Below, one piece after another: positions 14,830-64,000 of a stretch of DNA of 64,000 nt. The notes under the pieces are model-generated. The model was not told the DNA's origin, ran no database searches, and saw only the letters and a program-made list of their open reading frames with translations. Location: contig CP070719.1 of assembly GCA_020350725.1 (NCBI GenBank), positions 43,625-107,624 of the forward strand, written 5' to 3'. The position numbers and the translations under genes were made by a program. Origin of the DNA: a bacterium (GTDB lineage Bacteria; BMS3Abin14). Numbering within the stretch: position 1 is the stretch's first letter; every line of letters starts with the position of its first letter.

Positions 14830-16200
14830 ATGCCCGCTTCAAAACTCTGGAAAGAGATTCTGACAAACCTCCAGGGAGAGGTCAACCCACAGATCTTCTC
14901 CACCTGGTTCGACCCTCTCGTCCCGGTTGACATCGAGGGCGGCAGGCTTGTCCTGGAGGCACCCCACGCCTTCATCCGCGACTGGATCGAGGAGAACTAT
15001 GCCACCACCCTGAACCGCATCGTTCAGTCCCTGACGGGGAAGGATCTGTCGGTCCTGATATTGGTCAGCGAAGGCGGCGCTCCAGAGCCGCCTCCCGCCA
15101 GGAAGCGTCCCAAGAAACCCGCCCGGGAGGCCTCGCCCCCCAAACAGGAGGTCGGAGGGTTCGGAAACGGCGGTCTGAATCCCAAGTACACGTTCGACTC
15201 TTTCGTCGTCGGGTCTTCCAACCAGTTCGCCCACGCCGCCGCCATGGCGGTATCGGAACACCCGGCCAGATCGTACAATCCCCTTTTCGTCTACGGCGGC
15301 GTGGGGCTCGGCAAGACACACCTGATGCATGCCATCGGCCACATGGCCCTTTCCCGAGATCCGAGCCTGCGCCTCTGCTACCTGTCCAGTGAACGCTTCA
15401 TGAACGAGCTGATCAACTCCCTGCGTTTCGACCGCATGCCCCAGTTCCGGGAGATGTACCGGACCATGGACATCCTCCTGGTGGACGACATCCAGTTCAT
15501 TGCCGGCAAAGAACGGACCCAGGAGGAATTCTTCCACACCTTCAATACCCTCTTCGATTCCCACAAGCAGATCGTCGTCTCCTCCGACAAGTACCCCCGC
15601 GAGATACCGGACCTCGAGGAGCGCCTGCGGTCCCGGTTCGAGTGGGGCCTCGTGGCCGACATTCAACCGCCTGACCTGGAGACAAAGATAGCCATCCTCA
15701 ACAAGAAGGCGGCCCAGTCGGGCATCGCCCTCCCTCCGGACGTGTCGCTTTTCCTCGCGGAGAACACGGCTTCCAACATCCGGGAGCTGGAGGGTTTCCT
15801 CCTCCGCATAGCGGCCTTCGCCTCCATCAAGAAAACGACCAAGATCAGCATGGATCTGGTCAACGATGCCCTGCGTAATTTCCTGGATCAGAAGAGGAAG
15901 ATCATCACCGTTGAGGACATCAAAAGAAAGGTGGCCTCCAAGTACAACATCAAGGTGTCGGATATTAAATCCAAGAAGAAGAACAAGACCTTCATTCTCC
16001 CCCGCCACATTGCCATGTATCTGACCCGCCAACTCACGGATCTCTCCCTGCCCGAGATCGGCAGGAGCTTCGGCGGCCGCGACCACACAACCATCATCCA
16101 CGCCATCAACAAGGTGGAGAAGATGTTGTCTGATTCCCCCGAATTCGCCGACAACGTCAACAGGCTCACCAAGGAGATCGAAAACGGCAACCACCACTGA
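14830..16200 (+). CDS. dnaA: chromosomal replication initiator protein DnaA
   Basis: 456 aa; AAA+ Walker A GGVGLGKTHLMHAIG, C-terminal DNA-binding domain. Confidence 0.95.
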   Translation: MPASKLWKEILTNLQGEVNPQIFSTWFDPLVPVDIEGGRLVLEAPHAFIRDWIEENYATTLNRIVQSLTGKDLSVLILVSEGGAPEPPPARKRPKKPAREASPPKQEVGGFGNGGLNPKYTFDSFVVGSSNQFAHAAAMAVSEHPARSYNPLFVYGGVGLGKTHLMHAIGHMALSRDPSLRLCYLSSERFMNELINSLRFDRMPQFREMYRTMDILLVDDIQFIAGKERTQEEFFHTFNTLFDSHKQIVVSSDKYPREIPDLEERLRSRFEWGLVADIQPPDLETKIAILNKKAAQSGIALPPDVSLFLAENTASNIRELEGFLLRIAAFASIKKTTKISMDLVNDALRNFLDQKRKIITVEDIKRKVASKYNIKVSDIKSKKKNKTFILPRHIAMYLTRQLTDLSLPEIGRSFGGRDHTTIIHAINKVEKMLSDSPEFADNVNRLTKEIENGNHH

Positions 16201-16259: not shown

Positions 16260-16520
16260 CCTGTTTACATTCCTGTGGACCTTTCTGTGGACCTTTCTGT
16301 GGAATGCCGCACCTGTGGATGAACGTGGGCTCTTCAACAGATCCGTCCACAGCGACGCCGGAATCTGTTGTCCAATAACTTCATGCAGTTAACCGCCCAT
16401 ACCCCCAATCCACAGTTCCTTCTTTACCTACTACTATCTTTTTTTATATAATAACTAGAAGTGCTAAGTGTTGCTTTACGGTGTGACTTTTTCCATATAA
16501 AATACGCAGAGATTCCGGAC
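16260..16520. other. probable replication origin (oriC): DnaA-box-like repeat cluster plus AT-rich DNA unwinding element
   Basis: Tandem TGTGGAC/TGTGGAA/TGTGGAT motifs with 12-bp spacing around 16275-16325, further box-like ATCCACAG near 16410, then a strongly AT-rich stretch (about 16430-16500) in a GC-rich genome; between dnaA and dnaN. Confidence 0.55.
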
Positions 16521-16701
16521 GTTCGGTAGGGAAAAGGGGGATCGTCCAGAGCTGAGAATCATCCTTCAGGGAGTCGATTCTCCCCGTTACCGAACAGGTA
16601 CTGATATTGGACTCCGGATGGACACCGGCCGGAAGCCGGCTCGACTGTAGATCCGGAATTTGGCGGCCCCCGGGGCTGCATTTACGAACAGGAGGTAAAA
16701 G

Positions 16702-17820
16702 GTGCTTGCATTCTCCATCAACAGAGAAGCCTTTCTCCAGGGCCTGTCGCGTGTCCAGAATATAGTGGAGAAGAAGAACACCGTTCCCATTCTCAGCAAC
16801 GTTCTCATCGACGGAAGCGGTGGAAATCTCAAACTGGTGGCCACCGATATGGAAGTGGGGATCAGCGGCTACCTGGACGGTTCGATGAAAAGCGAAGGGG
16901 CGGTCACGGTCTCGGCCAGAAAGCTTTTCGAGATCATCAAGGAACTGCCGCCGGAAGCGGAGGTTTCCCTCCAGGTCAGGGAAGGCAACATATCGGAAAT
17001 CACCTGCGGGACGTCTTCCTTCGAACTGAAGGGCCTTCCTGCGGAGGACTTTCCCAATCTGCCCTCCTACGAGGAGGAGAACTTCCTCACCCTCGATGCG
17101 GAGTCCTTCGGCGAGATGATCAGGAAGACGATCTACGCCGCCTCAACCGATGAGACCCGTTACAATCTCACCGGGATCCTCCTGGAGATGGAAGACAGGG
17201 AAGGGACCAACATCGTGCGCATGGTAGCCACCGACGGCCACCGTCTGGCGATGGTGGAGAGAGAGGCAAAGGGCAGCATTCGGCCCGGGGAGAGTGTTGT
17301 CATTCCCCGCAAATCACTGAACGAGGTCCGGCGCCTGCTGGACGAGGGAAACGAAGGGGTCGAGATGGACTTTCAGAAACAACACGGTATCTTCCGAAAG
17401 GACTCCATCGTGTTGACGACAAGGTTGATCGACATGTCCTTTCCCAGCTACCAGCAGGTTATACCCGAGGAGAACGGCACTGCGGCCACGGTTGACAGGG
17501 AGGGAATGATCTCCGCCATCAGAAGGGTTTCTCTGTTGTCCTCGGAAAGGTCCAGGGCCGTGAAGTTCACCTTCTCGTCATCGGGCATCACCGTCTTCAC
17601 CAACAACCCCGACCTCGGCGCCGCCACGGAATCGATACCCGTTACCTACGAGGGTGAGGACATGGAGGTGACCTTCAACGCACGCTACATGCTCGACACC
17701 CTGAACTCGATGACTGCCGACGACGTGATTTTAAGCCTCAAGGACGAACTCAGCCCCTGCAAGATTTTCCAGAAGGACGATAAAAGCTACATCGCCGTGA
17801 TTATGCCCATGCGCATCTGA
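16702..17820 (+). CDS. dnaN: DNA polymerase III beta sliding clamp
   Basis: 372 aa; GTG start after AGGAGG; canonical position after dnaA. Confidence 0.9.
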   Translation: MLAFSINREAFLQGLSRVQNIVEKKNTVPILSNVLIDGSGGNLKLVATDMEVGISGYLDGSMKSEGAVTVSARKLFEIIKELPPEAEVSLQVREGNISEITCGTSSFELKGLPAEDFPNLPSYEEENFLTLDAESFGEMIRKTIYAASTDETRYNLTGILLEMEDREGTNIVRMVATDGHRLAMVEREAKGSIRPGESVVIPRKSLNEVRRLLDEGNEGVEMDFQKQHGIFRKDSIVLTTRLIDMSFPSYQQVIPEENGTAATVDREGMISAIRRVSLLSSERSRAVKFTFSSSGITVFTNNPDLGAATESIPVTYEGEDMEVTFNARYMLDTLNSMTADDVILSLKDELSPCKIFQKDDKSYIAVIMPMRI

Positions 17821-17823
17821 TCC

Positions 17824-21578
<3,755 letters not shown>

Positions 21579-21665
21579 GGAGAAAAGACATCGACCGCCG
21601 GAAACAGGAGGCCGGCAGAGGACGGCCGGTCCGCGGTCCCATAGGGGAGTGAAACGGGAAGATAT

Positions 21666-24113
21666 ATGAGCGACCTGATCGGTTCTGTCAACGCACCTAT
21701 CAGCAGCGTTAACATCGAGGACGAGATGAAAACCTCCTACCTCGATTACGCCATGAGCGTCATCGTCGGCAGAGCCCTCCCCGACATCAGGGACGGCCTC
21801 AAACCGGTGCACCGCAGGACCCTTTTCGCAATGCACGACCTGGGCAACGTCTATAACAAACCGTATAAAAAATCAGCCCGTGTCGTGGGTGACGTCATAG
21901 GCAAGTATCACCCTCACGGTGATCAGGCGGTTTACGACACCATTGTGCGCATGGCCCAGGACTTTTCCCTCCGCTACCTGCTCGTGGACGGGCAGGGGAA
22001 CTTCGGCTCCATCGACGGGGACGCGGCGGCCGCCATGCGGTATACCGAGGTCCGCATGACCCGGCTGGCCGGAGAGCTCCTTGAGGATATCGACAAGGAG
22101 ACGGTGGACTTCGGGTCCAATTACGACGACACCCTGACCGAGCCGCTCGTCTTCCCCGCCTCCTTCCCCAACCTCCTGGCCAACGGCTCGTCCGGCATCG
22201 CGGTGGGCATGGCTACCAACATACCGCCGCACAATCTGGCTGAGGTCATCGACGCCTGCATCCTGGTCATCGAGAAACCCAACGCCGGTATCGACGAGAT
22301 CATGAGTATCATGCCCGGCCCGGATTTTCCCACCGGCGGATTCGTTTACGGCCTGCAGGGGATAAGGGACGCTTACACCACGGGCAGAGGCCTTATCAAG
22401 ATGCGGGCCCGGGCCCAGATCGAGAGGGGAAAGAAGAAGACCGCTATCGTGATCACGGAGCTTCCCTACCAGGTCAACAAAGCCAGGCTCGTGGAGAGGA
22501 TCGCCGACCTCGTCAAGGAAAAGAAGATCGAGGGGATCTCCGACCTCCGCGACGAGTCGGACCGGGAGGGCATGCGGCTTGTCGTGGAGCTCAAGCGGGA
22601 CAGGGACGAGATCGCCGAGGTGGTCCTCAATCAGCTCTATTCCATGACCCAGATGAAGTCGACATTCGGCGTTCAGATGCTGGCCATCCACCGGAACCAG
22701 CCGGTCCTCTGCACCCTGCCCCAGGTGCTTGGCCACTTTGTCGACTTCCGGGTCGAGGTGGTCACCCGCAGAACCCGGTTCCTCCTGGCCAGGGCGGAAG
22801 AGCGAGCCCACATCCTGGAGGGTCTGAAGATCGCCCTGGACAACATCGATGCCGTCGTGGAGCTGATCAAGAAGTCCAAGGATGTCCCCGAGGCCCGGGG
22901 CGGCCTCATAAAGCGGTTCGGCCTGTCGGAAAAACAGGCCAACGCCATCCTGGAGATGCGACTCTCCCGTCTCACAGGGCTGGAAAGGGAAAAGGTCGAG
23001 ACAGAACTGACAGAGACGCTGGCCGAGATCAGCCGGCTCCGGGCCATCCTGGCCGACGAGAAGAAGGTGTTGGCGGTCATCGTGGACGAACTGAGGGGGG
23101 TCCGCGACCGATACGGCGACGCCAGGCGGACCGAGATCGTGGCGGACACCGGTGAGCTGTCAATGGAGGACCTCATCGTGGACGAGGAGGTCCTCGTCAC
23201 CGTGTCCCACTCGGGCTATATCAAGAGATCATCTCTGGCGCTGTACCGCTCCCAGCAGCGCGGCGGCAAAGGGCTGACCGGCCTGTCCATGAGGGATCAG
23301 GATTTCGCCGAACATATCTTCGCGGCCTCGACCCACAGCCATATCCTGTTCTTCACCAATCGGGGAAAAGTGTATTGGCTGAAGGTCCACGAACTTCCCC
23401 AGATGGGGCGGGCGGCCAGGGGCAAGAACATGGTTAATATCCTGCCTGTCGAGGCAGACGAGGAAGTCACGGCCTTCCTCCCGGTCAGGCACTTCACCGA
23501 TCGGCACTTCGTCGTCATGGCGACCAGGAACGGCGTGGTGAAGAAGACGGCGCTCTCCGCCTATTCCAATCCCCGCTCAACCGGGATCATCGCCCTGACC
23601 CTCGACGCCGGGGACGAACTGATCTCCTCCCTTCTCACCGACGGGGAGCGGGATCTCCTTATCTGCACCCGTCAGGGACAGGGGATCCGTTTCCGGGAGC
23701 AGGCGGTCCGCCCGATGGGCCGGACCGCCAGGGGCGTTCGGGGGATCAATCTGAGAACGGGCGACAGGGTCGTGGGCATGGAGGTCGTCAACGACGCCGC
23801 CTACCTCCTCACCGTCACCGAGCGCGGCTTCGGCAAGCGCACGTCCATGAAGGATTACAATCCCATCGGGCGGGGCGGGAAGGGCGTGCGATCGGTAAAG
23901 GTCACGGAAAAGTCGGGAGAGCTGGTGGGCATCCTCCAGGTGGGCTCCGAGGAGGAGATCATGTTGATCACTGACGCGGGCAGGCTGATCCGCATGCCCG
24001 TGGGGGGCATCTCGGTCTACAGCCGATCTTCCCAGGGCGTCAAGCTCATCGACATGCCTAAACCCGACGAGAAGGTCGTCTCCGTGGCCCTCATTCAGAA
24101 GGGGGAAGGCTGA
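21666..24113 (+). CDS. gyrA: DNA gyrase subunit A
   Basis: 815 aa; active-site region AAMRYTE, C-terminal beta-pinwheel repeats. Confidence 0.95.
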
Positions 24114-34123: not shown

Positions 34124-35098
34124 TTATTCGAACAGGACGTTGGCGTCCACCCGATGGCCGGCTGCCTTGAGCAGCTTGATGAGGTTGATCTGCCACCCGC
34201 CGTCGGCCTGATAGGGCAAATAGGCGACGCCGAAGAACCCGGTTGGAACATCACTGGGCCTGTCTCCCCCGTGGAGGACGGCGACCCTGCCCTGTCCGAG
34301 CCTGCCGACGAGGTATCCGAGTTCGAAGATGATGTCCTGCCGGTGCCTCGGCTTGGCGATCTTGGCGGTGAGCCCCGGCAGGCCGCTCCTGTCGTCGGAG
34401 GGCAGTATGATCAGACAGAAACCAAGATCGGGCAGGGCCGCGATCCCCTCGATCTGGGATGCGGAGGATGACTGGGTTTCATCGATCATTGTCGCCTCGA
34501 CACCGAGCTTGTCGAGAAGACTGACCACGGAAAGGGTCATCTCGTCTTCCCTGGTGTGGAGCAGGAGGACACCCCTGTTCTCTTCCGGGGCGGGCCCCTC
34601 TGCCGGGGGGGGAGGTGGTGCGGCCGGCACCCTCGGCGCCTCCGGAGCCTTGGTCTTTGGGGCCGGCTTTTCCTCCACCAGGTCCTCTGCCTTGATCTCC
34701 AGGATCGCTCCACCCGCCCCGGACGGGAGGTCGTCGATGGCCGCCAGGATCTCCTCCAGCTGGGCGATGGCCTTGGGAATTCCCATCTCGAATTTCATCT
34801 GCTTTTCCGCGTGGGAATCCCTCAGGCTGACGTGGCCCATGAAGACCCTGAAAGCGCCGAACCTTTCCTGCTCGGGCGAATCCTCACCGAAGACGCCGGC
34901 GACAGTAGCGGCGACGGTCCGCTGCAGATCTTCGATCTCAGGGCTGTCGAAAGGGACGATCTTGGGATCGATGAAGCGGAGCTGGTCAAGGACCGAGGTA
35001 ATGGTCTGTCTGCCTCTGTCGACGGATATCCTGCCCACGGCCGCTCCCATGTCTCCGGCCCCTGCCGGGGAGAATGAGTGACGCACTCTACCGGACAA
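34124..35098 (-). CDS. two-domain protein: unknown N-terminal domain, Pro-rich linker, C-terminal TIR-like nucleotide-binding domain (COG4271-like)
   Basis: C-terminus VLLLHTREDE...FCLIILPSDD...RQDIIFELGYLVGRLGQGRVAVL...RPSDVPTG matches the TIR-like pattern recalled from memory (FIVHGHD / AIVLLTPDD / RQNVIFELGYFIGKLGR). Confidence 0.6.
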   Translation of the reverse strand: MSGRVRHSFSPAGAGDMGAAVGRISVDRGRQTITSVLDQLRFIDPKIVPFDSPEIEDLQRTVAATVAGVFGEDSPEQERFGAFRVFMGHVSLRDSHAEKQMKFEMGIPKAIAQLEEILAAIDDLPSGAGGAILEIKAEDLVEEKPAPKTKAPEAPRVPAAPPPPPAEGPAPEENRGVLLLHTREDEMTLSVVSLLDKLGVEATMIDETQSSSASQIEGIAALPDLGFCLIILPSDDRSGLPGLTAKIAKPRHRQDIIFELGYLVGRLGQGRVAVLHGGDRPSDVPTGFFGVAYLPYQADGGWQINLIKLLKAAGHRVDANVLFE

Positions 35099-36981: not shown

Positions 36982-37122
36982 TCCTGCCGGACCGGCTTGA
37001 CGGCTCCTCCCCCTCTGGCAGGCCGAAGCCCCTGTGGACGATCACGGTCCGGGGGGCCGGATGGCGGGGCCCGGATGGCCGCCGGGCCGGCGACGTTCGC
37101 TCCCCAGAGGTCATGGAAGATA

Positions 37123-37884
37123 ATGGTCCGCCCGGGCAATCCTGACCACGGGAGGCATCCGCCGATCCACCTCGGAGGAATAGGGATCTCCCATGACAGA
37201 TACCCCACCCGGGATCATCATCCGTTCAACCTCGAGATCCTGCAGAACACATCCAGACTGATCTTCTCCTCACCGGTCACGTTCTTTGCCGGCGAGAACG
37301 GGTCCGGCAAGTCCACCCTCCTCCGTGGCATCTGCCTGAGCTGCGGCATTCACATATGGGAGAGCGAGCGACGCAGGCGCCTCGAGCCCAACCGATACGA
37401 GGGCAGACTGCACGAGGCGATTGACGTCCAGTGGAGCAGCCAAGGGGTTCCTGGTGCGTTCTTCGCGTCCGAGATCTTCAGGGATTTTTCCCAGGCGTTG
37501 GACGAGTTCGCGGCGGCGGATCCGGGCTTCCTTCGCTACTTCGGCGGCAGATCCCTTGTCAGCCAGTCTCACGGTCAGTCCATCATGTCCTATTTCAGGT
37601 CACGGTGCCGGATCGAGGGCCTGTACCTCCTCGATGAACCGGAGACGGCGCTGTCGCCGCGGAGCCAGATCCAACTCCTGCGGATCCTGGCCGGAGCCTG
37701 CCGGGGTGGGGGAGCCCAGTTCATCATAGCCAGCCACTCGCCCATCCTGCTGTCCTGCCCCGGAGCCCTGATCTACAGCTTCGACGGCGACGCAGTCGAG
37801 CCCATTTCCTATGAGGAGACCGATCACTACCGGGTCTACCATGATTTCATGCTGGACAGAAACAGGTACCTCGCCGGCCCGTGA
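37123..37884 (+). CDS. orphan ABC-type (AAA_21-like) ATPase
   Basis: 253 aa; Walker A GENGSGKST, Walker B LYLLDEPETALS, H-loop ASHSP; no transporter permease nearby. Confidence 0.7.
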   Translation: MVRPGNPDHGRHPPIHLGGIGISHDRYPTRDHHPFNLEILQNTSRLIFSSPVTFFAGENGSGKSTLLRGICLSCGIHIWESERRRRLEPNRYEGRLHEAIDVQWSSQGVPGAFFASEIFRDFSQALDEFAAADPGFLRYFGGRSLVSQSHGQSIMSYFRSRCRIEGLYLLDEPETALSPRSQIQLLRILAGACRGGGAQFIIASHSPILLSCPGALIYSFDGDAVEPISYEETDHYRVYHDFMLDRNRYLAGP

Positions 37885-40973: not shown

Positions 40974-43292
40974 ATGCTGCTCCGCCTGTCCGTCCTCCTC
41001 CTGTCCTCTTCGGTCCTCTGCTACGAGATCGTCATCATACGGCTTCTCACCATCTCTCACTGGCAACCCTTCGTCACCCTGGCCATCTCCGTCGCCCTGC
41101 TCGGCTTCGGTATCAGCGGGAGTGTCCTGGTGCGTACGGGCGGGTTCCTCTTTCCGAGGCGCCACGTCTGCTACCCTCTCTTCGCCGCCCTGGCCGCCCT
41201 TTCCTACAGGCCGATGCTGGCCGCGGCCGGCCTTCTCCGGCTTGAACCGGCCCTGATCGTCAGGGATCTGGAGCAGTGGGCGACCCTTGCTCTCCTGGTG
41301 GTCACGCTGACCTTGCCTTTTCTCCTCGCCTCACTCGCCCTCGCCCTGCCCCTTCTGGAGCGCGAGACAGTGGGCCGATATTATGGGTGGAACCTCACCG
41401 GGTCCTGTCTCGGAGCCCTTATGGCCCTGGCGGCCCTCGCCCTTCTCCCCCCCGGCGCCCTGGCAGGCGTGCCGACGGCGGCCGCCGCCGCCGCATGCGC
41501 CGTGTCCCTTCCCCATTATCACCGGCTGTCCCGTCCCTATGACATGGTGATCCTGGCGACGGCGATCCTCCTCCCGACTTTACTCATACCTTTCGGCCCC
41601 GTTCGCTACGGTCCTTACAAGGACATCTCCTATGCCCTCCTGCTCCCCGGGTCCCGGATCTCCGCCCGGGAGGGGGGCGTCACGGGGTTGATCCAGGCCG
41701 TTCAGGCGCCGGCGATACGTTCAGCAGCGGGGCTCTCGACCGGTTATCCGGGCCAATTGCCCCCCCAGGGGGCGCTTTTCAGGGACGGCGACCGCATCGG
41801 GACGCTCGTCCTGGCTGACGACGTAGCGGATACCCGCCTGGAGTATGTCCGCTGGCAGACGGGAGCAGCTGCCTACGAGATGCTGACCCCCGGAGCGGAG
41901 GTGGCTGTCGTCGGTTTCGACGGAGGGGAGGAGATGGTAAGGTCGCTGGTCTACGGGGCCTCCCGGGTTGCGGTAGCCGAAGCGGATCCGGTGGCGCAGA
42001 GGATGGCAGGGTCGACTCCCGAGGTCTTCAAGGAGTGGATATTTTTCCACCCGGGTGTGTCCCTGGTCACCTCCAATATCCGATCCTTTCTGGTCTCGGC
42101 TCCGGGACGGTTCGATGCAGTGATCTTCCCGGCCTCGGGCAACCTGGCGGCCGCCGCGGCGGGGTTGACCGGCACGGCTGAAAGCTATGAACTCACCCAT
42201 GAGGGAATAGGCGCCGCCCTGGAGGCCCTCCGGGAGGGAGGCCTGGTCGCCATCAGCGGGTGGAACCAGGAGCCGCCCACCGCCCGCCTGAAGATATTGG
42301 CCGTGCTGAGGGACCTGGCCGAGGACCTGAACGAGAGCTGGTACCCAGAAGGGGTGGCCGTCATCGAGGGGTGGTCCACCCACACCGTCATCGTCCGACG
42401 CACTGCCCTCTCGGCAGGGGATCTGGATGCCCTGGCGGCCTTCTGCCGATCCAGGGCCTTTTCCCTGGTCAGGAAATGGGACCTTGGGGATGGGGAGGGG
42501 AGGATGCTGGGAGAGCGGAACGTGGGCGGTCTTGAAGGGTATGATCTGCGGCCGCCCGTGGACGACAGGCCCTTCCCCTGGCACTCCATGAAAGTGTCCC
42601 AGCTGGGCCGCATGGCCGGCCGCCGGGGGGAGGCAGCCTTCCTGAAGGTCGAGTGGGGATTTCTCTTCCTGATCATGACCCTGGTCCTGTCGGTGGCGCT
42701 TTCGCTGGTTCTGTTGGCCCTTTCCAGGCCAGCCAACCGATCGTCGGCCGCCCGTTGGCCGTTTACCCTTTACTTCTCCTCTCTGGGAATTGGGTACATG
42801 GTCATCGAGGTCATGACCATCAAGAGGGGCGGCCTCGTCCTGGCGCCTCCGGCCGTCTCGGCCGCCCTCGTTCTGGCCGGCTTTCTCCTCTTCTCCGGGC
42901 TGGGGAGTCTCACGGCGGGTAAACTCCACCGCAGGACAGGACATGTTCCCATGCTGTTCCCGTTCATCCCGATCGCGGCAGCGGGCATTTACTTCCTGAT
43001 GCCCCACCTCGTCCAGCTGGCGACGCCGATCAGGGTCATCATGGTCCTTGTCCTTTTGGCCCCCTGCGCCTACCTGATGGGGTTTCCTTTCCCGGCGGCT
43101 CTCGGCGGTTTCCGAACCCGAAGGGAATCCCTTGTGCCGTGGGCGTGGGCCGCCTCGGGATACACGTCGGTCCTCGGCAGTTCCCTGGCCGGGGTTCTGG
43201 CCATCACCGGAGGCCTCTTCGTCCTGCTCCTCCTCGGAGCCGCCTGTTATGTCCTGGCCGCCATCCTTTTTCCCCGGGTGGCACGGGAGTGA
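40974..43292 (+). CDS. polytopic membrane protein with central spermidine-synthase-like (methyltransferase-fold) domain
   Basis: 772 aa; N- and C-terminal multi-TM blocks; N-terminal YEIVIIRLL motif typical of membrane-fused SpeE-like proteins; starts 7 nt after pcm. Confidence 0.55.
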   Translation: MLLRLSVLLLSSSVLCYEIVIIRLLTISHWQPFVTLAISVALLGFGISGSVLVRTGGFLFPRRHVCYPLFAALAALSYRPMLAAAGLLRLEPALIVRDLEQWATLALLVVTLTLPFLLASLALALPLLERETVGRYYGWNLTGSCLGALMALAALALLPPGALAGVPTAAAAAACAVSLPHYHRLSRPYDMVILATAILLPTLLIPFGPVRYGPYKDISYALLLPGSRISAREGGVTGLIQAVQAPAIRSAAGLSTGYPGQLPPQGALFRDGDRIGTLVLADDVADTRLEYVRWQTGAAAYEMLTPGAEVAVVGFDGGEEMVRSLVYGASRVAVAEADPVAQRMAGSTPEVFKEWIFFHPGVSLVTSNIRSFLVSAPGRFDAVIFPASGNLAAAAAGLTGTAESYELTHEGIGAALEALREGGLVAISGWNQEPPTARLKILAVLRDLAEDLNESWYPEGVAVIEGWSTHTVIVRRTALSAGDLDALAAFCRSRAFSLVRKWDLGDGEGRMLGERNVGGLEGYDLRPPVDDRPFPWHSMKVSQLGRMAGRRGEAAFLKVEWGFLFLIMTLVLSVALSLVLLALSRPANRSSAARWPFTLYFSSLGIGYMVIEVMTIKRGGLVLAPPAVSAALVLAGFLLFSGLGSLTAGKLHRRTGHVPMLFPFIPIAAAGIYFLMPHLVQLATPIRVIMVLVLLAPCAYLMGFPFPAALGGFRTRRESLVPWAWAASGYTSVLGSSLAGVLAITGGLFVLLLLGAACYVLAAILFPRVARE

Positions 43293-54081: not shown

Positions 54082-57000
54082 CTACAACACCTCATAATTC
54101 CCCGAGTCCACCCACAGGATCCCCACCTCCTTCACCTCTCCTGCCCCGAAGCTCTCCCACGCCTCCTGGTAGGCCTCCAATTGAAAACGGTACCTCTCCA
54201 GGTCCTGTGCCCCGGTCTTGTAGTCCACGATGACCCAACCGCCGTCCTCCTCGAACACCAGATCCATGACGCCGGTCTCGACGGTCTCGATCTCTCTGCC
54301 CTCGAGCAGGCGAGTGTAGGGGATCTCCGTAAAGATCCGCTCAGCCCGGCGGGCCCGGGCCCACTCGGACGACTGCGCTGCCTCTCGGGCGGTGCGGACG
54401 AACTCGGCTGCCCTCTCCACGTCCAGGTCCTGGTTGGCGCAGAGGGACCGTGACAGCTCCTCGAGGTCGACTTCCGGGCGGGTCATGGCCGCCTCCAGAA
54501 GGCCGTGGATGACGGTGCCCCGCTTTGCGGCCTCCTCGTCCACGGGCCGGCGCCTGTCCGCCTTGCCTTCGGCGCCGTACTGTGACGGGAATCCCTTGTC
54601 GTAGCTCTGTTCCATGGTCCGCTGCCAGGAGGCGGCGATGGTCTCCCGGGCCTTCTCCGCTTCCGCCGCCGCAATGGCGGGGCCGGTTTTTTTGGAATGT
54701 GCCGTGACCTCCTTTCCAGGATCCTCCAGTGGCGCGGCCTCTTCCAGTCCCTCCTTGAAGAACAGCCAGGGGTTTGACCGCTCGCCCTTGGCGCGCTGGC
54801 TCACCACCAGGCGGCTGCCGGCACGGGTGGCGGCCACGTAGAGACGCCTTAACTCCTCGGCGTCGGCGAACCTTTTCTCCTCGGCGGCCAGGTGTTCCCA
54901 ATCCAGGGGCCGGGCCAGGACCTCCCCGGGCATGAACCCCCGGGTGGGGCCGAGCACCTTCATGTACCCAGCGATCTCATCGCTGGAGCGGTTGCCGTGG
55001 GACCGGTCGATGTGAATGAGGGGTTCCCGGTCCGACTGGCCGGTGGGGTCGGCAAGGTACACCACCGGGGCCTCGAGCCCCTTGACCTTGTGAAGGTTCA
55101 TCACCCGCACCGGTTCCTCGGCCGGGGACACGGCTGTGATCCCGTCGTGCTTCTCCTCGCCGGAGGCCAACTGATGGAGGTAGTCGAGGAGATCCTCGGG
55201 GGACCAGCGGTCCCGCAGGTCGCCGCGCAGGAGCTCCAGGGCCTTCAGCAGTGAACCGGCCATGAGGTCGCCGTTCTCCCCCGCCGCGGCCGAGGCGGCG
55301 AGGCCCAGCTCCTCGGTCATGGCCGACAGGACGGCCACCGGAGGCATGGCCCCCAGCCTTTCCCGGAAACCGGTCAGAAGGTCGAAGATCTCCCGGTAGA
55401 TCCCTCCGGTACCCTCACCCAGGACCTCGGGGACGCCCTCCCGATAGTTGAAGGTCCCCCCTGCCAGGGCGTAATCGTAAAGCTGCTGGTCCGTCAGGCC
55501 GAACAGCCCTCCCCGGAGCACGGCCAGAAGGGCCACCGGGTCCTCCGGGAAGAGCACCGCTTTAAAGCACGCTGCCAGCATCCCGAGTTCCGGCGGCGTG
55601 GAGAGCCCCGAGCCGCCGGTGACCTGGTGGGGGATCCCCATCTCCTGGAGTGCCGCGCCGTAGAGCCCCAGCTGGTGGGTGTAGGCGGTGACCACCATGA
55701 AGTCCCCGGGGCAGCACGGCGAAGGGCCCTCCTTTCGGGGGACGGTCTGTCCCCCGGTAAGGCGTGCGCGCACGTCCCGGGCGATGAGCCCCGGCTCAAA
55801 CGCGTGGATGAGCTCCCTGTTGGACAGGTGGCGGAGGTTGTCAGACCGCTCGATGCCCGTCAGATCCGCGGTGTCCGTCTCCGGCCCGGGCTGCAGGGGC
55901 ACGTACCCGGGGGAGTAGGGCCTCGTCAGCTCCCCGAAGGGTCCGGAGAATCGATCGTTGACCCACCTGATGAGTTCCGGCGTTGAGCGGAAGGAAGTGG
56001 ACAGGTGAACCGGGGGGTTGTCAGGACCGCACAGGATCTCCTTGACCGTCTCGTAGACGACGATGTCGGCCCGGCGGAAGCGGTAGATGGACTGCTTGGG
56101 ATCGCCCACCACGAAGAGGGATCCCGGTACGGGCCTGCACCGGGTCCAGTCGGTCTCGTTGACGTCGTCGGCCGTGAGCAGCAGCATGACCTGGGCCTGG
56201 ACGGGATCGGTGTCCTGGAACTCGTCCACCAGCAGGTGAGTAAAGCGGGCCCGGAAGTACTCCCTCACCGCCGGCTTGTCCCTTAAAAGACCGGCTGCGG
56301 CCATGAGCAGGTCCTGGAAGTTCATGCTCCCCGACTCGGCGCGGATGTCTTCGTAGATGCCGGCGGCCGCCGCGAAGGCCTCCATGACCAGCCCGTATCG
56401 ATAGGCCAGCCACCGGTTGACGGCCGGGACGGCATGATCCTCCGCCAGGCGGGTGTGGCGTTCCTTTTCCGCCAGGGCCTGCTCCTTTTTGCCGGGCCAC
56501 ACCTTCTGGATGATGCCGGGTTCCGGCTTGATCTCGCTCAGGATGGCGAAGAGGGAGGCTGGGCCCTCTGGCAGGCGGCGGCTCATGCGGCGGATGCGCC
56601 TTAAACGCGGGATGAGCCCGTCGTTGCCCGGGTCCCGGGGCAGGTCGGGAAGGAGCCTGTCCAGGTGGCGCAGGTAGTCAGCGAGGGCCTTTCGGGCCTG
56701 GGAAAGGTCCGGCGGCCCCGTTCGATCTGCCGGCCAGCGGTCCAGGTCCGGGTAGCGGCAGTAGTCCACAAAGGACGCGGCGAGGTCGGTCGGCGTCAAC
56801 CCCGAAGCTGCAAGCTCTTTCAGCACAGGGTCGTCGGGCCCGGCCTGTTCCAGGTACCGGGCCCAGGCCTCCTTGCGATAGCGCACGTCGGCGTCTTCGG
56901 CAAGCTCACCGAAGCCGGGATCCACGCCGGCCTCCACCGGCCTCTCCCGAAGCAGCCGGGAGCAGAAGGAGTGGATGGTGCCCACGAAGACCTGGTCCAG

Positions 57001-57294
57001 GTCGGCGAGGGCCTCCGAGAGACGCTCGGCCTCGCCTCCGGCGGCCTCCCGGGCCGCCACGGCAAGGTCCGCAGCAAAGCGTCCTTTAAGTTCAGCCGCC
57101 GCCTTGCGGGTGAACGTCATCGCCGCAATGGTGGACGGGGTGCAGCGGCCCTCCCGGAGGAGAGCGATCATGCGGGCCACCATAACCGTGGTCTTGCCGG
57201 TGCCCGCGGCCGCCTCCACCAGCATACTGCTGCCGAGGTCGGCGACGACGCGATCCCTCTGGTCCTGGTCGGGGGGGATGAAATTACGGGTCAC
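54082..57294 (-). CDS. addA: AddA/RecB-like helicase-nuclease (UvrD-type helicase with C-terminal PD-(D/E)xK nuclease)
   Basis: Walker A AAAGTGKTT near N-terminus; C-terminal nuclease motif GVMDLVFEE...IVDYKTG; start set at GTG (the first ~88 codons of the track ORF look non-coding). Confidence 0.8.
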   Translation of the reverse strand: MTRNFIPPDQDQRDRVVADLGSSMLVEAAAGTGKTTVMVARMIALLREGRCTPSTIAAMTFTRKAAAELKGRFAADLAVAAREAAGGEAERLSEALADLDQVFVGTIHSFCSRLLRERPVEAGVDPGFGELAEDADVRYRKEAWARYLEQAGPDDPVLKELAASGLTPTDLAASFVDYCRYPDLDRWPADRTGPPDLSQARKALADYLRHLDRLLPDLPRDPGNDGLIPRLRRIRRMSRRLPEGPASLFAILSEIKPEPGIIQKVWPGKKEQALAEKERHTRLAEDHAVPAVNRWLAYRYGLVMEAFAAAAGIYEDIRAESGSMNFQDLLMAAAGLLRDKPAVREYFRARFTHLLVDEFQDTDPVQAQVMLLLTADDVNETDWTRCRPVPGSLFVVGDPKQSIYRFRRADIVVYETVKEILCGPDNPPVHLSTSFRSTPELIRWVNDRFSGPFGELTRPYSPGYVPLQPGPETDTADLTGIERSDNLRHLSNRELIHAFEPGLIARDVRARLTGGQTVPRKEGPSPCCPGDFMVVTAYTHQLGLYGAALQEMGIPHQVTGGSGLSTPPELGMLAACFKAVLFPEDPVALLAVLRGGLFGLTDQQLYDYALAGGTFNYREGVPEVLGEGTGGIYREIFDLLTGFRERLGAMPPVAVLSAMTEELGLAASAAAGENGDLMAGSLLKALELLRGDLRDRWSPEDLLDYLHQLASGEEKHDGITAVSPAEEPVRVMNLHKVKGLEAPVVYLADPTGQSDREPLIHIDRSHGNRSSDEIAGYMKVLGPTRGFMPGEVLARPLDWEHLAAEEKRFADAEELRRLYVAATRAGSRLVVSQRAKGERSNPWLFFKEGLEEAAPLEDPGKEVTAHSKKTGPAIAAAEAEKARETIAASWQRTMEQSYDKGFPSQYGAEGKADRRRPVDEEAAKRGTVIHGLLEAAMTRPEVDLEELSRSLCANQDLDVERAAEFVRTAREAAQSSEWARARRAERIFTEIPYTRLLEGREIETVETGVMDLVFEEDGGWVIVDYKTGAQDLERYRFQLEAYQEAWESFGAGEVKEVGILWVDSGNYEVL

Positions 57295-60200
57295 CGGCCG
57301 TCCTCTTGTCGCGGAGCTCCCTGCCGCGCAGTTCTCTGAAGCAGTCGAGCCTGTTGTCGGCATCCGAGGAGAGCTTGGCACCGGCCGCCTTCGCCAGGGT
57401 TTCCAGGTCACCGCACACGTCCCTGTAGTCGCAGTAGCGGCAGTCTTTGTCCGTGTCCGTGGAGCAGAAAGCCCCGCCGGAAGCCGCCCGGACGAGAAGG
57501 GCCAGGATGGCGTCCCCCCCGGCGAGGTCGGAGCTGTGCCAAAAGACCGCTTCGTCAACGGTCCGGGAGGCCGGGAAGGCGTATCGGAATTCCTCCACCA
57601 CGGCGCCAGGGTCTACGGTATCCTTAAGGAGGCGTTCAGCCAGCCTGATGTACAGGGCCTGCTGCACGGTGCGGCCCTGGCGGAAGGCGTCGGCCACATC
57701 GTACCGGTAGGCGCTGCCGCTCTTGTAGTCGGTGATGCGATAGCGGTGACCCCTGCCGGCGAGCCGGTCGATGCGATCGATGCGCCCGCTGCTGCGGATG
57801 GTCACTCCTCCCGGCAGCACGAGGGCCATCGGCTGGCCGTCCCGGTCAAGTCCCACTCTCTGCTCTAACAGGAACGGCTCGGCTTCGCCCGCGGCCTCCT
57901 CCTCGTCCTGCAGGAACACGCGGGCCGCTTCCGTGAGGCGGTTCACCTGCTCCCGGTAGAGGGTGTCGTCAGGGGGTGGGTACTTCTCCCGATACCGTCG
58001 GGCCTCGTCGGCCACGATCGTTTCCATCTCCTCCATGTGGGTGGTCAAAGAGGGGGACTCCCCCCTTTCCATGACGTGGGACATGAAGCGGTGCAGGACA
58101 TCGTGCAGGAGGGAGCCGAAATGCAGAGGTTCAAGCCACACCTCGCGCTCGGCGCCGGGGTCTTCCGGGGGTTTCACCCCAAGGAGGTCGGAAAAGAAGT
58201 AGGCCAGGGGGCAGCGGCCTATGGTCTCCAGCCGGGTGGCCGACATGGCCGGGCCGTCGGTCAGGGGGTCATGGCGGCGGTGCAGGTCCACCAAACCGTC
58301 CCAGGGGGTGAGGGTATCCGAAAGCCGGCCGGCCAGGGCGGCCCTGCCGGCGGCGAGGCGGGGGAAGGCCTGGTGGATCGTCTCACGGGCGTTTGCCGGT
58401 CTGTCACCTTTTAAAAGGGCCCGCAGCCACCACTCGGTTTCGTCGGCACAGGCCTCCCCCTCCCCCGGCGTGAAGGCGGCGGCGGGTCCGGCAAGTTCCA
58501 TGAGCCGCCCGGCCTGGGCGTCGAGTTCCCCGGTGACGTACCGTAAGAGCTCCTGGCAGATAGCCGCAGGGAACAGCTCCCTGTCGTCGGCAAGGTCCAG
58601 GGAAGACCAGCTCATGACCACCTCGCCCCGGAGCCGGGCGATCATGCCCCGCAGCTCCTCTGCCCGCCGGACCTGGGTGCCGGCGGCGGTGGGGAGGTCG
58701 TCCGAGATGCCTGCCCGCTCCCGGTCCAGGAGCACCGGGTCCTGAAGGCCGGCCCCGGGGTGCCGGCTGTCGTCCATCCCGATGATAAAGGTGTAGGGGC
58801 GCCCCGTGTGGCCGCCGCCCGAAAGCCGGGAGGCGTGCAGGCACCCGGGCCGGGGCCCGCTGCCGCCCATCCGCTCGTCTCGTGCCATCTCCCGCAGCTA
58901 GTCGAAGGGGTTAAGGGTGCACGGTTCGGCGCCGGCCCGGAACCAGTGAACCAGTTCCAGTATCTTTTCCTCGAACTTCTCCAGGGCGTAGGCGTCCCAG
59001 CGGTTGGTGCCCCGGGCCAGGTTTTTCAGGAAGGCGCCGGCTTTTTCCAGTACCTCGTCCACCGGGGAGTCCGGTGAAGGGCAGGTGGAAAGGAGTTCCC
59101 GGGTCACCCTCCTGAGTTCCTTTAACGCGGCAAGGTCCGCGCCGCGGTCGTGGTATTCCTCCTCCGGGTCACCGGACTCTTGGATCCCTTCCTCGATCTC
59201 CCTGCCCAGTTACCGGACCCTGCTGACCATGACCGGCAAGAAGCGGTTCCGTCCCCTGCCGACAGGCAGGTTTCTGAGCAGCCGGGCCATGCGGGCGGCA
59301 GGGATATTCCCGTCGGTCACCAGCAGGCCGTTTCTGACCATGGTCAACAGGACCGGCTGTGGAAAGCCTTCCCGGATCCAGTCGACCCAGGCCATCAGGG
59401 CCCGTCCGGGCCGGGTGAAGCGGGTGGGAATGCCGTCGGCGAAGGTCACCGGGGGGTCGGACACGTCGGTGACGTGGTCCCTGGCGAGGCGCACACTTTC
59501 CTCAAAGAGGAGGGGCAGGTAGCTCTCCTGGTCGGTGTACAGGACCTCCACCTGGTCCAACGGGATCCCTCGGGAAAGGCAGCGGCGGAAGATATTGCGC
59601 ACCTCGGCCGTCTCTCCCAGGGCGGTGGCGAAGGAGACGGTGAGCCCCCTGCCGCCCCCGACGACGGCGGACAGGTCCACGGCCGTCTCGCCGGGAACCT
59701 TGAGAAGTTTCTCTCCGGGCAGGGAGCTCGCAAACCGGCCCTCGAGGCCCTGCAGATGAATAAAGTCGGGCACCAGAGCCACGGAGTCACCGGCCAGCCC
59801 GTCAAGCCGGGCAGCTTCCTCCAGGACCCGGGCACTGTCGTAGATATCAAGGGCATCGAGCTGCCGGCAGTAGGCGCCGTAAAGGGCGGCCACCTCCAAT
59901 CCCTTGGCCCCCACCTCGAAGTGGCCGGCGTCCATCTGTCCGGCGGTCACCCCGGCCATGCGCAGGTCAGAGATGGTGAATGAGAGACGGGACAGGAAAC
60001 CAGGGGTCACCTGGATCGTGGCAAGGTACGGGTCCTTCTGCTTGTCTTTTAGGCCGTCCCAGAGCCGGTCCACCATGAACTCGTGGGCCTGGCCCGGGAG
60101 CAGGGTCACCTCCCGGCCGGCGGAGCTCAGGAACTGGAGGGCGAGGCCCAGGACCGTCGTCACCCGCAGATTTACGGCCGGCTGTCCCGAGCGGGCCACC

Positions 60201-60331
60201 TGTTCTATCCACTGGTGCCCGACCCGCAGGTTGGGCGCGATGAGCCACTTCTCGGCCAGAAGATGATGGCGGCAGATCCCGGCCAGGTTGGAGATGAATC
60301 TGTTGGGCAGTGGATTTTTCATTAATGGCAA
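57284..60331 (-). pseudogene. addB: AddB-like nuclease subunit, single frame interrupted by two in-frame stop codons
   Basis: Track ORFs 59210..60331, 58898..59107 and 57284..58888 share one frame (all starts = 1 mod 3); separated only by TAA (59210-59212) and TAG (58898-58900); C-terminal part has PD-(D/E)xK motif and Cys cluster CSTDTDKDCRYCDYRDVC. Confidence 0.6.
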
Positions 60332-60393
60332 GTTTCCCGAGTGTCTGGTTTCTAGATTCCAGACGCTAGATCCCAGAAACCAGAACCTGGGCC

Positions 60394-60999
60394 CTAAACA
60401 CGGCCCTCAGGCCACTGCCCGGCCACCGCCACCTCGGCCAGGGGTTTGCGGTCTTTGGGGAATTCGCTGGCCCGGATCTCCCCGGGGAGGTCCTCCGGGT
60501 CGCCGTATCTCCCGATGGCGATGGCACAGATGACCTCGTATTCCTCCTCCGGTATGCCGGCGGCCTGGTAGGCACGGTCCCGGCGGTACCCCGCCATGGC
60601 GTGGGTATAGAGTCCGAGAAACCTGGCCTGAACGGTCAGGGACATCCAGGCCGCACCGCAGTCAAAGGCGGCCCAGCGGTTCGGCCTGCCCGTCTTCCGG
60701 AAAGTCCGCCGGGCGAACAGGAGGGCCAGAACAGGAGCGTTCTTTGCCCAGACCTGGTTCCTCTCGGTCAGGACGTCCAGAATACGCAGCCGGTCCTCCT
60801 CGGTGCCCGAATAGATGAAGACCCAGGGCTGTTCGTTGAAGCATGACGGGGCCCATCGGGCGGCCTCGAAGAGCGTCCTCAGCGTTTCCCCGGCAATGGG
60901 TTCCGGACTGAAGGCTCGGGGCGACCACCTGTCCAGGAACAGGCGGTCCACCGGGGCGTCGGCGACCCGTTCGTTCCGGGCGGGGGCTTTCACGGTCAT
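60394..60999 (-). CDS. nitroreductase family protein
   Basis: About 201 aa from internal Met; nitroreductase-like motifs (RWSPRAF, AAWMSLTVQARFLGL). Confidence 0.7.
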   Translation of the reverse strand: MTVKAPARNERVADAPVDRLFLDRWSPRAFSPEPIAGETLRTLFEAARWAPSCFNEQPWVFIYSGTEEDRLRILDVLTERNQVWAKNAPVLALLFARRTFRKTGRPNRWAAFDCGAAWMSLTVQARFLGLYTHAMAGYRRDRAYQAAGIPEEEYEVICAIAIGRYGDPEDLPGEIRASEFPKDRKPLAEVAVAGQWPEGRV

Positions 61000-61111
61000 G
61001 TCACGCTCCTTCCTGGATTTTTCGTTCGACCTCGTCACCCGGCATGATATGATGTCCGGGTAGACAGATGAAATATCCCATCCCCCGCCGAGCACGGTCA
61101 AGGAGAGATAT

Positions 61112-61810
61112 ATGTCCCGTTTTTTCCCATGGATCCTTGCGGCCGCGGCTGCCATGAGCTGCGCTCACGCCGGAACGGCGGCCAGGGTCCCCTCGGTGGA
61201 TCTCTCCCCGGCCAAGGCCCCCTTTGGCGCTTCCGTCGGCACGGTTCTCGATCCCTATAGCCGGTATGGGGTCACGGAGGATGGAACACCCTACATCGAG
61301 GCCATCGGCGGTTACGTTCTCGAGGAATTCTTCAAGGGCGGGCTCCAGAAACAGGACAAGGGGACCTGCTTCTATCCCAGCGTGGTGAAAAAATACAGAG
61401 TTGTCGGACCGCCATCGGGCGGCGTGGGGGAGCTGACGTTCTACTTCGAGGGATTCGAGAGCCCCCGGCAGCCCTACCGCCTCTTTATCGTCAAACAGAG
61501 ATACCGGAAACCGGCCGAGGGAGAGGGTGACTTCCGGCAGGTTTTCAAGGTCCGTTCCCGGGCCATTACCGGGAACCTGAAGGTCGAGCCCGCCGTCCAC
61601 CAGGGAACCTACCAGGACTTCCGGACCGGCGTGCACGACTACTTCTACGCTCCGGCCCTTGTCGGGGTGTGGGACACGGGACGCATCCTCGTCTTCCTGA
61701 TGGTGGCCGATTCCACCGACGGCCCCGTGGAGCCGGAGATCATGTTCGTGTTCCGGGAGGGGCTCGAGCGCTACCTGAAGAACTGCAAGTTCATGTCCGA
61801 CTCCCGGTAG
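61112..61810 (+). CDS. hypothetical lipoprotein
   Basis: 232 aa; signal peptide with Cys (AAAAMSC); no recognisable domain. Confidence 0.5.
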   Translation: MSRFFPWILAAAAAMSCAHAGTAARVPSVDLSPAKAPFGASVGTVLDPYSRYGVTEDGTPYIEAIGGYVLEEFFKGGLQKQDKGTCFYPSVVKKYRVVGPPSGGVGELTFYFEGFESPRQPYRLFIVKQRYRKPAEGEGDFRQVFKVRSRAITGNLKVEPAVHQGTYQDFRTGVHDYFYAPALVGVWDTGRILVFLMVADSTDGPVEPEIMFVFREGLERYLKNCKFMSDSR

Positions 61811-61836
61811 GCTTCCCCTTCCCCGGTCCGGCGGGA

Positions 61837-62880
61837 TCATCTCGGGGTCGGCAGGAGGATCCCTCTGTCCCCCGCCCACCGCACGTCGGCGGCGCCTTTC
61901 GGGATGCCGGCCGTGAGCCTGTCGAAGACACCCCTTCCCTCATCCCCGGTCAGGATCCTGGGCCTGAAGGCGATCACGGTGTTGTCCACCAGCAGGGGGT
62001 AGATCTCGACTCCCGAACAGAGGCCCTCCGGGGTGAACTCAGCCCTGGCCATGAGGCCGTGCCGGGCGTTTCTGCTGTAGGATCCGAAGGAAAAATTCCC
62101 CAGGCTGTACAGTATGACCCGACCCCGGTAGACCTCGATCGGCTGGAGTACGTGGGGATGGTGTCCCACGACCATGGCGGCGCCCGAATCGATGGCCAGG
62201 CGAGCCAGATCAACCTGATAGTCCTTCGGCGTCTCCATGAGCTCCTGGCCCCAGTGAAAGGATACGATCACGGTCCCTCTAACCGAGGCGGCCGCGACAG
62301 CCCTCCGGACGGTCCCGGGCGACCCGAAAAGGGTGCCGGGCCTTGACTCTCCTGCCCAGTACGAGTCGGGGAAGGTGTTGCTGAAAGCCAACAGGAGAAG
62401 GTTTCCGGGCGGTGCGGTCATCTCCGCCGGCAGGCCGGCCTCAGCGAGGTCCATGCCGGCTCCGGCCGGGGAGACGCCGGCCTCCCGGAGGAAGGCGAGG
62501 GTGTCCTCGAGGGCCTCGGGACCGAAATCAAGGATGTGGTTGTTGGCCAGGGAGACGGACCTCACCCCTTCTGCGAACATGGCCTCGGCGGCCTCGGGTT
62601 CGGCCCTGAAGGTGTAGGTTTTGCCCTCGACGGATGTCCCGCGGTGGGACAGGGGAGCCTCGAGGTTGAGGAAAACCCCGTCGGAATCTGCTAGGATGTG
62701 GCGGACCCCTCCGAAGAGGTAGGGAAAGCCCCTGGCCGCAATAACCCCCTCGGCGCTCCCCGCCGGAAGGAAGTCTCCGAGGAGTACCACGCGCCGGCCT
62801 GCGGGGGGGCTGCCGTCGGCGGTCGAAGGTGGGGCGAGGACGGCGAACAAGATGACCAGAAAAGAAAAAAACCTTTGCAT
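61837..62880 (-). CDS. CapA/PgsA-like metallophosphatase (poly-gamma-glutamate/capsule synthesis family)
   Basis: Signal peptide; metallophosphatase-like motifs (VSLANNHILDFG, MVVGHHPHVLQ). Confidence 0.7.
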   Translation of the reverse strand: MQRFFSFLVILFAVLAPPSTADGSPPAGRRVVLLGDFLPAGSAEGVIAARGFPYLFGGVRHILADSDGVFLNLEAPLSHRGTSVEGKTYTFRAEPEAAEAMFAEGVRSVSLANNHILDFGPEALEDTLAFLREAGVSPAGAGMDLAEAGLPAEMTAPPGNLLLLAFSNTFPDSYWAGESRPGTLFGSPGTVRRAVAAASVRGTVIVSFHWGQELMETPKDYQVDLARLAIDSGAAMVVGHHPHVLQPIEVYRGRVILYSLGNFSFGSYSRNARHGLMARAEFTPEGLCSGVEIYPLLVDNTVIAFRPRILTGDEGRGVFDRLTAGIPKGAADVRWAGDRGILLPTPR

Positions 62881-62967
62881 GGCGGGAAGTTAGCACGTCA
62901 CCGGCCTGTTTGACAACCCCCATCATTGGTGTTATAGATTGCCACTCCAGCGGAGAGAGGGATCTTG

Positions 62968-64000
62968 ATGCTCGACGTCCGTTTCCTGAGAGAGAACATC
63001 GATTTCGTGGAGGAGAGGCTGGCCGCCAGGGGCGAGGTGCTGGATCTCGACCCTTTCCGGAAACTGGACGGGGAGCGGCGTTCCCTCCTCCGGGAGACGG
63101 AGGACATGAAGGCGCGCCGGAACGCGGAGTCCCTCGAGATCGGCCGCCTCCGGAAGGAGGGCGTCGATGCCGCCGACCGCATGGAGGTGGTCCGGGGTCT
63201 CGGGGAGAGGATCAAGGCCAACGATGAGAGGCTCAAGTCCATCGAGACGGAGCTGAGGGAGTTTTTGCTCACTGTACCGAACCTCCCCCATGACTCGGTT
63301 CCGGTGGGAAAGGACGAGAACGCAAACAGTCTGGTCAGGACGTGGGGAGAGAAGCCTGACCCTGCCTTCGATCCGCTTCCCCACTGGGAACTCGGCGAGT
63401 CTCTGGGGGTTTTGGACCTCCCCAGGGCTGCCCGGATGGCCGGGGCCCGGTTTTCCGTCCTCTCCGGTGCCGGCGCCCTCCTGGAGAGGGCGCTGATCTC
63501 GTTCATGCTCGATCTGCACACCAGGGAGCACGGATACAGGGAGGTCCTCACCCCCTTCATGGTCAACGCAGACAGCATGCTGGCAACGGGGCAGCTGCCC
63601 AAATTCGAGGAGGACCTGTTCCGTGTCGAGGGGGGACAGTTCTACCTGATCCCCACAGCGGAGGTTCCGGTGACGAACCTCCATCGCGAGGAGATCATGA
63701 AGGAGAAGGACTTCCCTCTCCTCTATGCTGCCTACAGCCCCTGCTTTCGCCGGGAGGCCGGATCCCACGGCAAGGACACGAGGGGGCTTATCAGGCTTCA
63801 CCAGTTCAACAAGGTGGAGCTGGTGAAATTCACCCTGCCGGAGAACTCCTACGAGGAGCTCGAATCGCTGACCAGGGATGCGGAAGAGGTCCTCAAGCGG
63901 CTCGGCCTGCACTACAGGGTAATGTCCCTGTGCACGGGAGATCTGGGATTTTCCGCGGCCAAGACCTACGATCTCGAGGTGTGGCTTCCCGGGCAGGAAT
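62968..64000 (+). CDS. serS: seryl-tRNA synthetase, N-terminal part (runs off window end)
   Basis: Hand translation [23 protein letters not shown]...[25 protein letters not shown] (class II motif 2); absent from ORF track because no stop in window. Confidence 0.9.

Follow-up and report, generated by a model that had tools for sequence, protein, structure and literature searches.

The closest described relative of the gene considered here is AddB, a subunit of the AddAB complex of Bacillus subtilis (PDB entries 3U44, 3U4Q and 4CEH-4CEJ, chain B), for which four cysteines of an iron-sulphur (Fe-S) cluster (C801, C1121, C1124 and C1130) and the nuclease residues D944, D961, K963, Q981 and Y985 have been described (PMC3321194). 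The residues for nucleoside triphosphate (NTP) hydrolysis are kept in only some AddB proteins, and the Walker A residues K14 and T15 of the B. subtilis subunit are not universal in the family (PMC3321194). AdnA of the mycobacterial AdnAB and RecC of RecBCD are likewise helicase-derived partner subunits of end-resection machines. Here we describe an addB-addA locus in a 64-kb window, by which we mean the whole stretch analysed (64,000 nucleotides of contig CP070719.1, assembly GCA_020350725.1), from a bacterial metagenome-assembled genome (MAG). Its addB gene is interrupted by two in-frame stop codons next to an intact addA, and probably carries a real and very recent double nonsense mutation.

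The minus strand from 60322 to 57284 is a single reading frame of 1,012 sense codons, broken only by one TAA and one TAG before the natural TAA at 57286-57284. The TAA lies at codon 371, counted from ATG 60322, in the context AGG GTC CGG TAA CTG GGC (59212-59210), and the TAG at codon 475, in the context TTC GAC TAG CTG CGG GAG ATG (58900-58898). A preliminary description, made from the sequence alone, had placed three minus-strand open reading frames (ORFs) in one frame, parted by these two stops; translation and a reading of the DNA gave exactly the same stop coordinates, and the three ORFs are 59210..60331, 58898..59107 and 57284..58888. It had also stated that the protein continues across both stops, and alignment to orthologues agrees, since homology runs directly over each of them. 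Of the extent that it gave for addB, 57284-60331, the 57284 end stands, while the start is probably the ATG at 60322 and not the TTG at 60331.

With the two stops bridged, a database search with the resulting 1,012-residue sequence finds 116 proteins. About 100 of these have lengths of approximately 1,000-1,110 residues and align over 95-99% of the query; the top match has E = 0 and 69% identity, and the leading matches are 66-69% identical. Because the bridged sequence matches full-length proteins, this is one broken gene rather than a chance arrangement of ORFs. The identity of its product as an AddB-like nuclease, proposed in the preliminary description, was borne out at the level of domain, profile and fold. 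Piece 3, the part downstream of the TAG, matches Pfam family PF12705 with E = 1.2e-30 (107.7 bits, where the cut-off is 22), and piece 1, upstream of the TAA, gave no Pfam or NCBIfam match when searched alone. A profile built from 30 family members matches chain 3U44_B, the B. subtilis AddB, with E = 2.8e-25, profile positions 55-929 aligning with chain residues 71-986. Fold comparison was made with an AlphaFold model of an orthologue, P0001, which is 69% identical, rather than with the window protein itself (predicted local distance difference test, pLDDT, 89; predicted template-modelling score, pTM, 0.80). In a Foldseek search of the PDB, the five best matches of this model were all AddB chains (E about 1e-28, template-modelling, TM, score 0.62), with AdnA and RecC next.

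The C-terminal part was also compared with AddB residue by residue. The nuclease motif residues Asp849, Asp865-Tyr-Lys867 (57730-57722), Gln887 and Tyr891 are present, and D849, D865, K867, Q887 and Y891 align to D944, D961, K963, Q981 and Y985 of B. subtilis. Codons for the four Fe-S cysteines are also found, Cys704 at 58213-58211 and Cys961, Cys964 and Cys970 within 57442-57413, in the pattern C...CxxCxxxxxC. They correspond to C801, C1121, C1124 and C1130 and are invariant in 30 homologues, so that piece 3 appears from its sequence to keep the ligands of a 4Fe-4S cluster of the AddB type. The window gene thus has in common with B. subtilis AddB a near-full-length profile match, the fold, the RecB-type nuclease motifs, the Fe-S ligands and a place immediately upstream of an AddA-type gene with an overlapping start. 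It differs in that its product is only about 15% identical and about 150 residues shorter, has no visible Walker A motif, and is interrupted by the two stops. By inspection of the translation, the Walker A pattern GxxGxGK[ST] was not found in the first 60 residues (MKNPLPNRFISNLAGICRHHLLAEKWLIAPNLRVGHQW...). AdnA and RecC are second-tier structural and profile matches; AdnA differs in keeping an active motor, and RecC has neither an active nuclease nor an Fe-S cluster, whereas the window protein, like AddB, keeps the nuclease and the four cysteines. The curated NCBIfam equivalog cut-offs were not reached (TIGR02773 addB_Gpos, 47.2 versus 903.7 bits; TIGR02786 addB_alphas, 46.9 versus 486.5 bits), and only piece 3 matches these models. 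The gene belongs to a divergent AddB-like lineage, for which database sources give only the names 'PD-(D/E)XK nuclease family protein' or 'ATP-dependent helicase/nuclease subunit B'. By fold and motifs, this widespread 'PD-(D/E)XK nuclease family protein' lineage is true AddB, despite scores far below the curated AddB cut-offs.

At both stop sites, intact orthologues have sense codons that are a single base change away. Seven close orthologues were compared (P0001-P0006 from the protein database and the DNA locus L001; 66-81% identity), and all seven, as well as roughly 100 more distant ones, are uninterrupted. L001, from a Gemmatimonadota MAG, is the closest orthologue at the DNA level (80% amino-acid identity) and the sole such match in a scan of genome contigs; its addB is open as far as the contig goes, the first start codon opening a frame of 974 codons, and the N-terminal 19 or so codons are cut off by the contig end. 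At codon 371 it reads CGG AAA CTG where the window reads CGG TAA CTG, one A>T change on the coding strand (plus-strand 59212 is A, and T in the orthologue), and at codon 475 it reads GAC TGG CTG against GAC TAG CTG, one G>A change (plus-strand 58899 is T, and C in the orthologue). The first site is Lys in the six closest database proteins; the second is Trp in five of these six (Arg in P0005), and family-wide the conservation of this Trp is about 90%. The comparison with orthologous addB that the preliminary description had proposed therefore shows a continuous gene that encodes Lys at the first site and Trp at the second, rather than genes that are genuinely split. Nor was a conserved split site found elsewhere, as other short AddB-like fragments in the database start and end at other positions. 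The window addB resembles ordinary nonsense-mutation pseudogenes in that its reading frame is cut short at codons which still encode amino acids in intact orthologues, each stop being one base away; it differs from them in showing no frameshifts, no raised ratio of non-synonymous to synonymous substitution rates (dN/dS) and no loss of conserved residues.

Indeed, signs of relaxed selection, whether in dN/dS, frameshifts or loss of conserved residues, were not detected in addB. Against L001, dN/dS is 0.31, 0.30 and 0.24 for the three pieces in order and 0.23 for addA, and the two addB genes differ by a single in-frame codon indel, with the frame nowhere shifted. When six outgroups were used, a relative-rate test gave 53 window-specific and 53 L001-specific amino-acid changes, with no piece deviating significantly; with the locus L006 as the single outgroup, the counts for window and L001 were 50 versus 54 in addB and 56 versus 74 in addA. 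Conservation in the family reaches 90% or more in 70 columns, and apart from the TAG at Trp475 the window sequence agrees with every one of them. Gene conversion from a decayed paralogue was considered as a source of the stops and rejected, since window-specific changes are not in excess in piece 2, the part between them (5 versus 7). The rest of addB thus still looks as if it were under purifying selection, which would make the inactivation very recent, in keeping with the word 'recent' in the preliminary description.

If the stops are real, two point mutations would have arisen independently in the addB half of this double-strand-break resection operon, one turning AAA into TAA at codon 371 and the other TGG into TAG at codon 475. 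Ribosomes that start at ATG 60322 would then halt at codon 371 and release a 370-residue N-terminal fragment. Such a fragment would lack the Fe-S cluster, the 5'-3' nuclease and the remainder of the helicase-like, Chi-scanning domain, and the AddAB complex would be expected to be non-functional. Termination about 1.9 kb upstream of the addA start may, in addition, cut addA expression through polarity. The organism would in that case have no working AddAB and would need another route of double-strand-break repair, for example RecFOR; the window contains recF, and a relative has recR close to addB.

The choice that the preliminary description had set out, a recent pseudogene or sequencing errors or, less likely, readthrough, was upheld as framed. 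We infer that the cells themselves, and not just the assembly, carry the stops and that AddB no longer functions, and we regard this reading of addB, with a real and very recent double nonsense mutation, as probable. Two observations weigh against it. Only 2.8% of the possible single-base substitutions in addB create a stop, so that two stops would normally be accompanied by some indels and dozens of other neutral changes. As none of this accompanying change is seen, the stops must either have arisen very lately or be spurious. Under simple neutral decay, two stops with no excess of changes or indels are somewhat unlikely, with a probability of roughly 0.02-0.2 that depends on the assumed number of recent substitutions. 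Furthermore, no reads or independent contigs extend over 58898-59212, the nearest Logan contig breaking off at 59559, with 347 nt still to go to the TAA, and this leaves room for an assembly or consensus error. The mild statistical tension is the sole unusual aspect of a finding that is otherwise ordinary. It would be explained if the stops were real and tolerated or even favoured, either because loss of AddAB end-resection was selected in this population, one gene having acquired two knock-out alleles independently, or because AddB works as a split protein through reinitiation; in both cases two nonsense changes could arise with no other decay, yet taken together we consider these possibilities improbable.

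The most serious alternative, which we nevertheless consider unlikely, is that one or both stops are artefacts of the MAG, arising from consensus, polishing or strain-mixing error or from a chimera of two minority alleles, and that addB is intact in the cells. The lack of any other decay is just what would be expected of an intact gene with two wrong bases. The source is, moreover, a metagenome-assembled single contig of 2,777,263 bp (2.78 Mb), and at position 61024, within about 4.3 kb, it differs from four independent Logan assemblies, so that it is not identical to the sequenced population. No product of the three pieces was found on Logan contigs, though the flanking GFA, nitroreductase and CapA proteins were; this is a weak point, Logan contigs being short. 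On the other hand, two independent stop-making substitution errors within 312 bp are improbable: taking the mismatch rate observed elsewhere, about 2e-4 per base, we estimate the chance for this gene at about 1e-4 and that for the whole genome at about 0.03. The 64 kb contain no other broken gene, long-read errors are mostly indels, of which none is seen in addB, and the two sites have no common motif that would suggest a systematic error. A systematic base-calling error was also rejected directly, as the plus-strand contexts, CAGTTA and CAGCTA, differ in which base was changed. A generally low-quality assembly was rejected as well on three grounds. In a scan of the window for coding ORF pairs in the same frame split by one stop, all other pairs were ordinary adjacent genes with a start codon right after the stop, addB being the sole exception; ten of ten other window proteins are identical to the GenBank record; and Logan contigs, which are derived from Illumina data, from seven other SRA runs show 0-2 mismatches per 1.2-2.7 kb over window positions 59559-63821. 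Neighbouring genes also have complete Pfam domains. Since the assembly is clean wherever it could be checked, a sequence generally ridden with errors is weakly disfavoured. A scan of metagenome contigs for sequence over the stops returned only relatives of about 25% identity, and exact look-ups found the three pieces only in the GenBank MAG; retrieval in the protein search was patchy (the window's own pieces were missed once and found once), which makes absent matches weak evidence.

Function might instead be kept at the level of translation. Reinitiation at ATG 58888 or 58870 after the TAG could produce a C-terminal fragment of 534 or 528 residues that still assembles with AddA and the N-terminal 370 residues into a working or partly working complex. 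The ATG at 58888 does sit 9 nt past the TAG, the C-terminal fragment has all the nuclease and Fe-S residues, and a working gene would explain why no decay is seen downstream of the stops. This ATG is, however, ancestral rather than newly evolved: of the seven close orthologues, four also have Met there, and L001 has Thr. The best Shine-Dalgarno-like element, GGGAG, runs straight into ATG 58888, leaving no spacer, while the single one upstream of 58870 is 18 nt away, so that neither start has a usefully spaced element. A split product would also lose 104 codons. Both stops fall within helices of a helical sub-domain in the P0001 model (helices 361-382, 391-416, 425-438, 445-465 and 476-486 of P0001; pLDDT 89), and not in linkers between domains. 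Close orthologues are never split here, and the breaks of other database fragments lie elsewhere. A functional split is, in our view, very improbable. Least credible of all is recoding, in which the stops would be read through by a suppressor tRNA, by pyrrolysine at the TAG, or after RNA editing, to give full-length AddB. In Escherichia coli, a stop followed by C is the weakest termination context, and C follows both stops here (TAA-C and TAG-C); it is also rare after the natural terminators of the window (2 of 17 TAG and 2 of 6 TAA). Yet this C belongs to an ancestral Leu codon, CTG, that is present in L001 too. The 55 genes of the window end in TGA (32), TAG (17) or TAA (6); thus TAG and TAA terminate 23 of them, including addA, which ends in TAG, and addB itself, which ends in TAA. 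The two sites stand for unlike amino acids, Lys and a conserved Trp, neither of which fits a known reassignment, and with two stops to be read through one after the other, the yield of full-length protein would be negligible. Neither a tRNA gene nor a match to an Rfam family was found within the window. Normal stop usage, the empty tRNA and Rfam searches, the unlike residues and the ancestral C leave reassignment, pyrrolysine and programmed readthrough unsupported; the preliminary description had already ranked readthrough as the less likely option, and here it appears extremely improbable. Ribosomal bypassing was likewise rejected, because homology restarts at the codon right after each stop.

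The main practical consequence of the interrupted addB is a correction of annotation. In GenBank the disrupted gene appears as three independent coding sequences (CDSs), with no pseudogene flag: UCF30959.1 (JSV26_00550; 370 residues), labelled 'hypothetical protein JSV26_00550', is piece 1; UCF30958.1 (JSV26_00545; 69 residues) comprises the last 69 codons of piece 2, from GTG 59107; and UCF30957.1 (528 residues) is piece 3 from its second ATG, at 58870. These three entries represent one disrupted addB, and a pseudogene flag or a re-check against the reads would be warranted. The features of the locus are collected in Table 1.

Table 1. Coordinates of the interrupted addB gene and the adjoining addA in the 64-kb window.
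Feature	Position	Strand	Description
addB piece 1	59213..60322	-	Codons 1-370; N-terminal part of inactivated helicase-like domain; aligns to the N-terminal part of intact orthologues
In-frame TAA	59210..59212	-	Codon 371; AAA (Lys) in L001
addB piece 2	58901..59209	-	Codons 372-474; helical sub-domain in the orthologue model
In-frame TAG	58898..58900	-	Codon 475; TGG (Trp) in L001
addB piece 3	57284..58897	-	Codons 476-1012 and natural TAA; end of helicase-like domain, RecB-type PD-(D/E)XK nuclease, four Fe-S cysteines
Span of catalytic and cluster residues	57413..58213	-	All intact; invariant alignment columns
addA	54082..57294	-	1,070 codons; GTG start, TAG end; UvrD-type superfamily 1 (SF1) helicase and C-terminal PD-(D/E)XK nuclease; intact

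The adjoining addA is intact over its whole length, as the preliminary description had supposed. Its Pfam domains (UvrD-helicase, UvrD_C and PDDEXK_1) make up the AddA architecture, and the motifs GTGKT, DEFQD and DYKTG are present. The gene starts at GTG 57294, and not at the TTG at 57558 of the mechanically called ORF, and so overlaps the addB stop by 11 nt (57284-57294). The same overlap arrangement is found in L001, where the GTG of addA lies at 2961 and the addB stop at 2966-2968, and the addB-addA order recurs in L006. The overlap suggests translational coupling of the two genes, through which a premature stop in addB could lower the synthesis of AddA.

Upstream of addB, the window holds a nitroreductase gene immediately adjacent, followed by a CapA-family gene and serS (60394-63999). 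In P0003, a 69%-identical relative on a Joint Genome Institute contig (JGI 3300042731), the order is dnaX-ybaB-recR, MglB/MglA-like genes, nitroreductase, addB and addA, so that synteny is partly kept. Essentially the same strain as that of the window is represented in the Logan runs SRR31444205, -220, -221, -223, -231, -232 and -233 (loci L007-L014). Four runs agree with one another, but not with the MAG, in the base at 61024, which lies upstream of the start of the nitroreductase gene; this represents either a fixed strain difference or a MAG error; other differing positions are 61056, 62164 and 62449.

Further away, positions 10151-24113 cover the region of the chromosomal origin, with mnmE, yidC, dnaA (14830..16200), dnaN (16702..17820), recF, gyrB and gyrA, according to GenBank protein names. 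The G+C fraction drops to 0.55-0.56 at 14-18 kb, where the cumulative GC skew also has its minimum. This fits an oriC adjoining dnaA, with addAB about 40 kb away. On the plus strand at 40974-43292, directly after a gene for protein-L-isoaspartate O-methyltransferase, lies a gene for a 772-residue protein with a strong coding signature and no Pfam match, annotated as 'hypothetical protein JSV26_00475'. At 34124-35098 on the minus strand, the window encodes a TIR-domain protein of the CAP12/Pycsar-effector type (PF10137, E = 3e-12), and at 36997-37884 on the plus strand an AAA_21/AbiEii-like ATPase, with a gene for a Sel1-repeat protein between them; the genes for the TIR-domain protein and the ATPase may serve in anti-phage defence.

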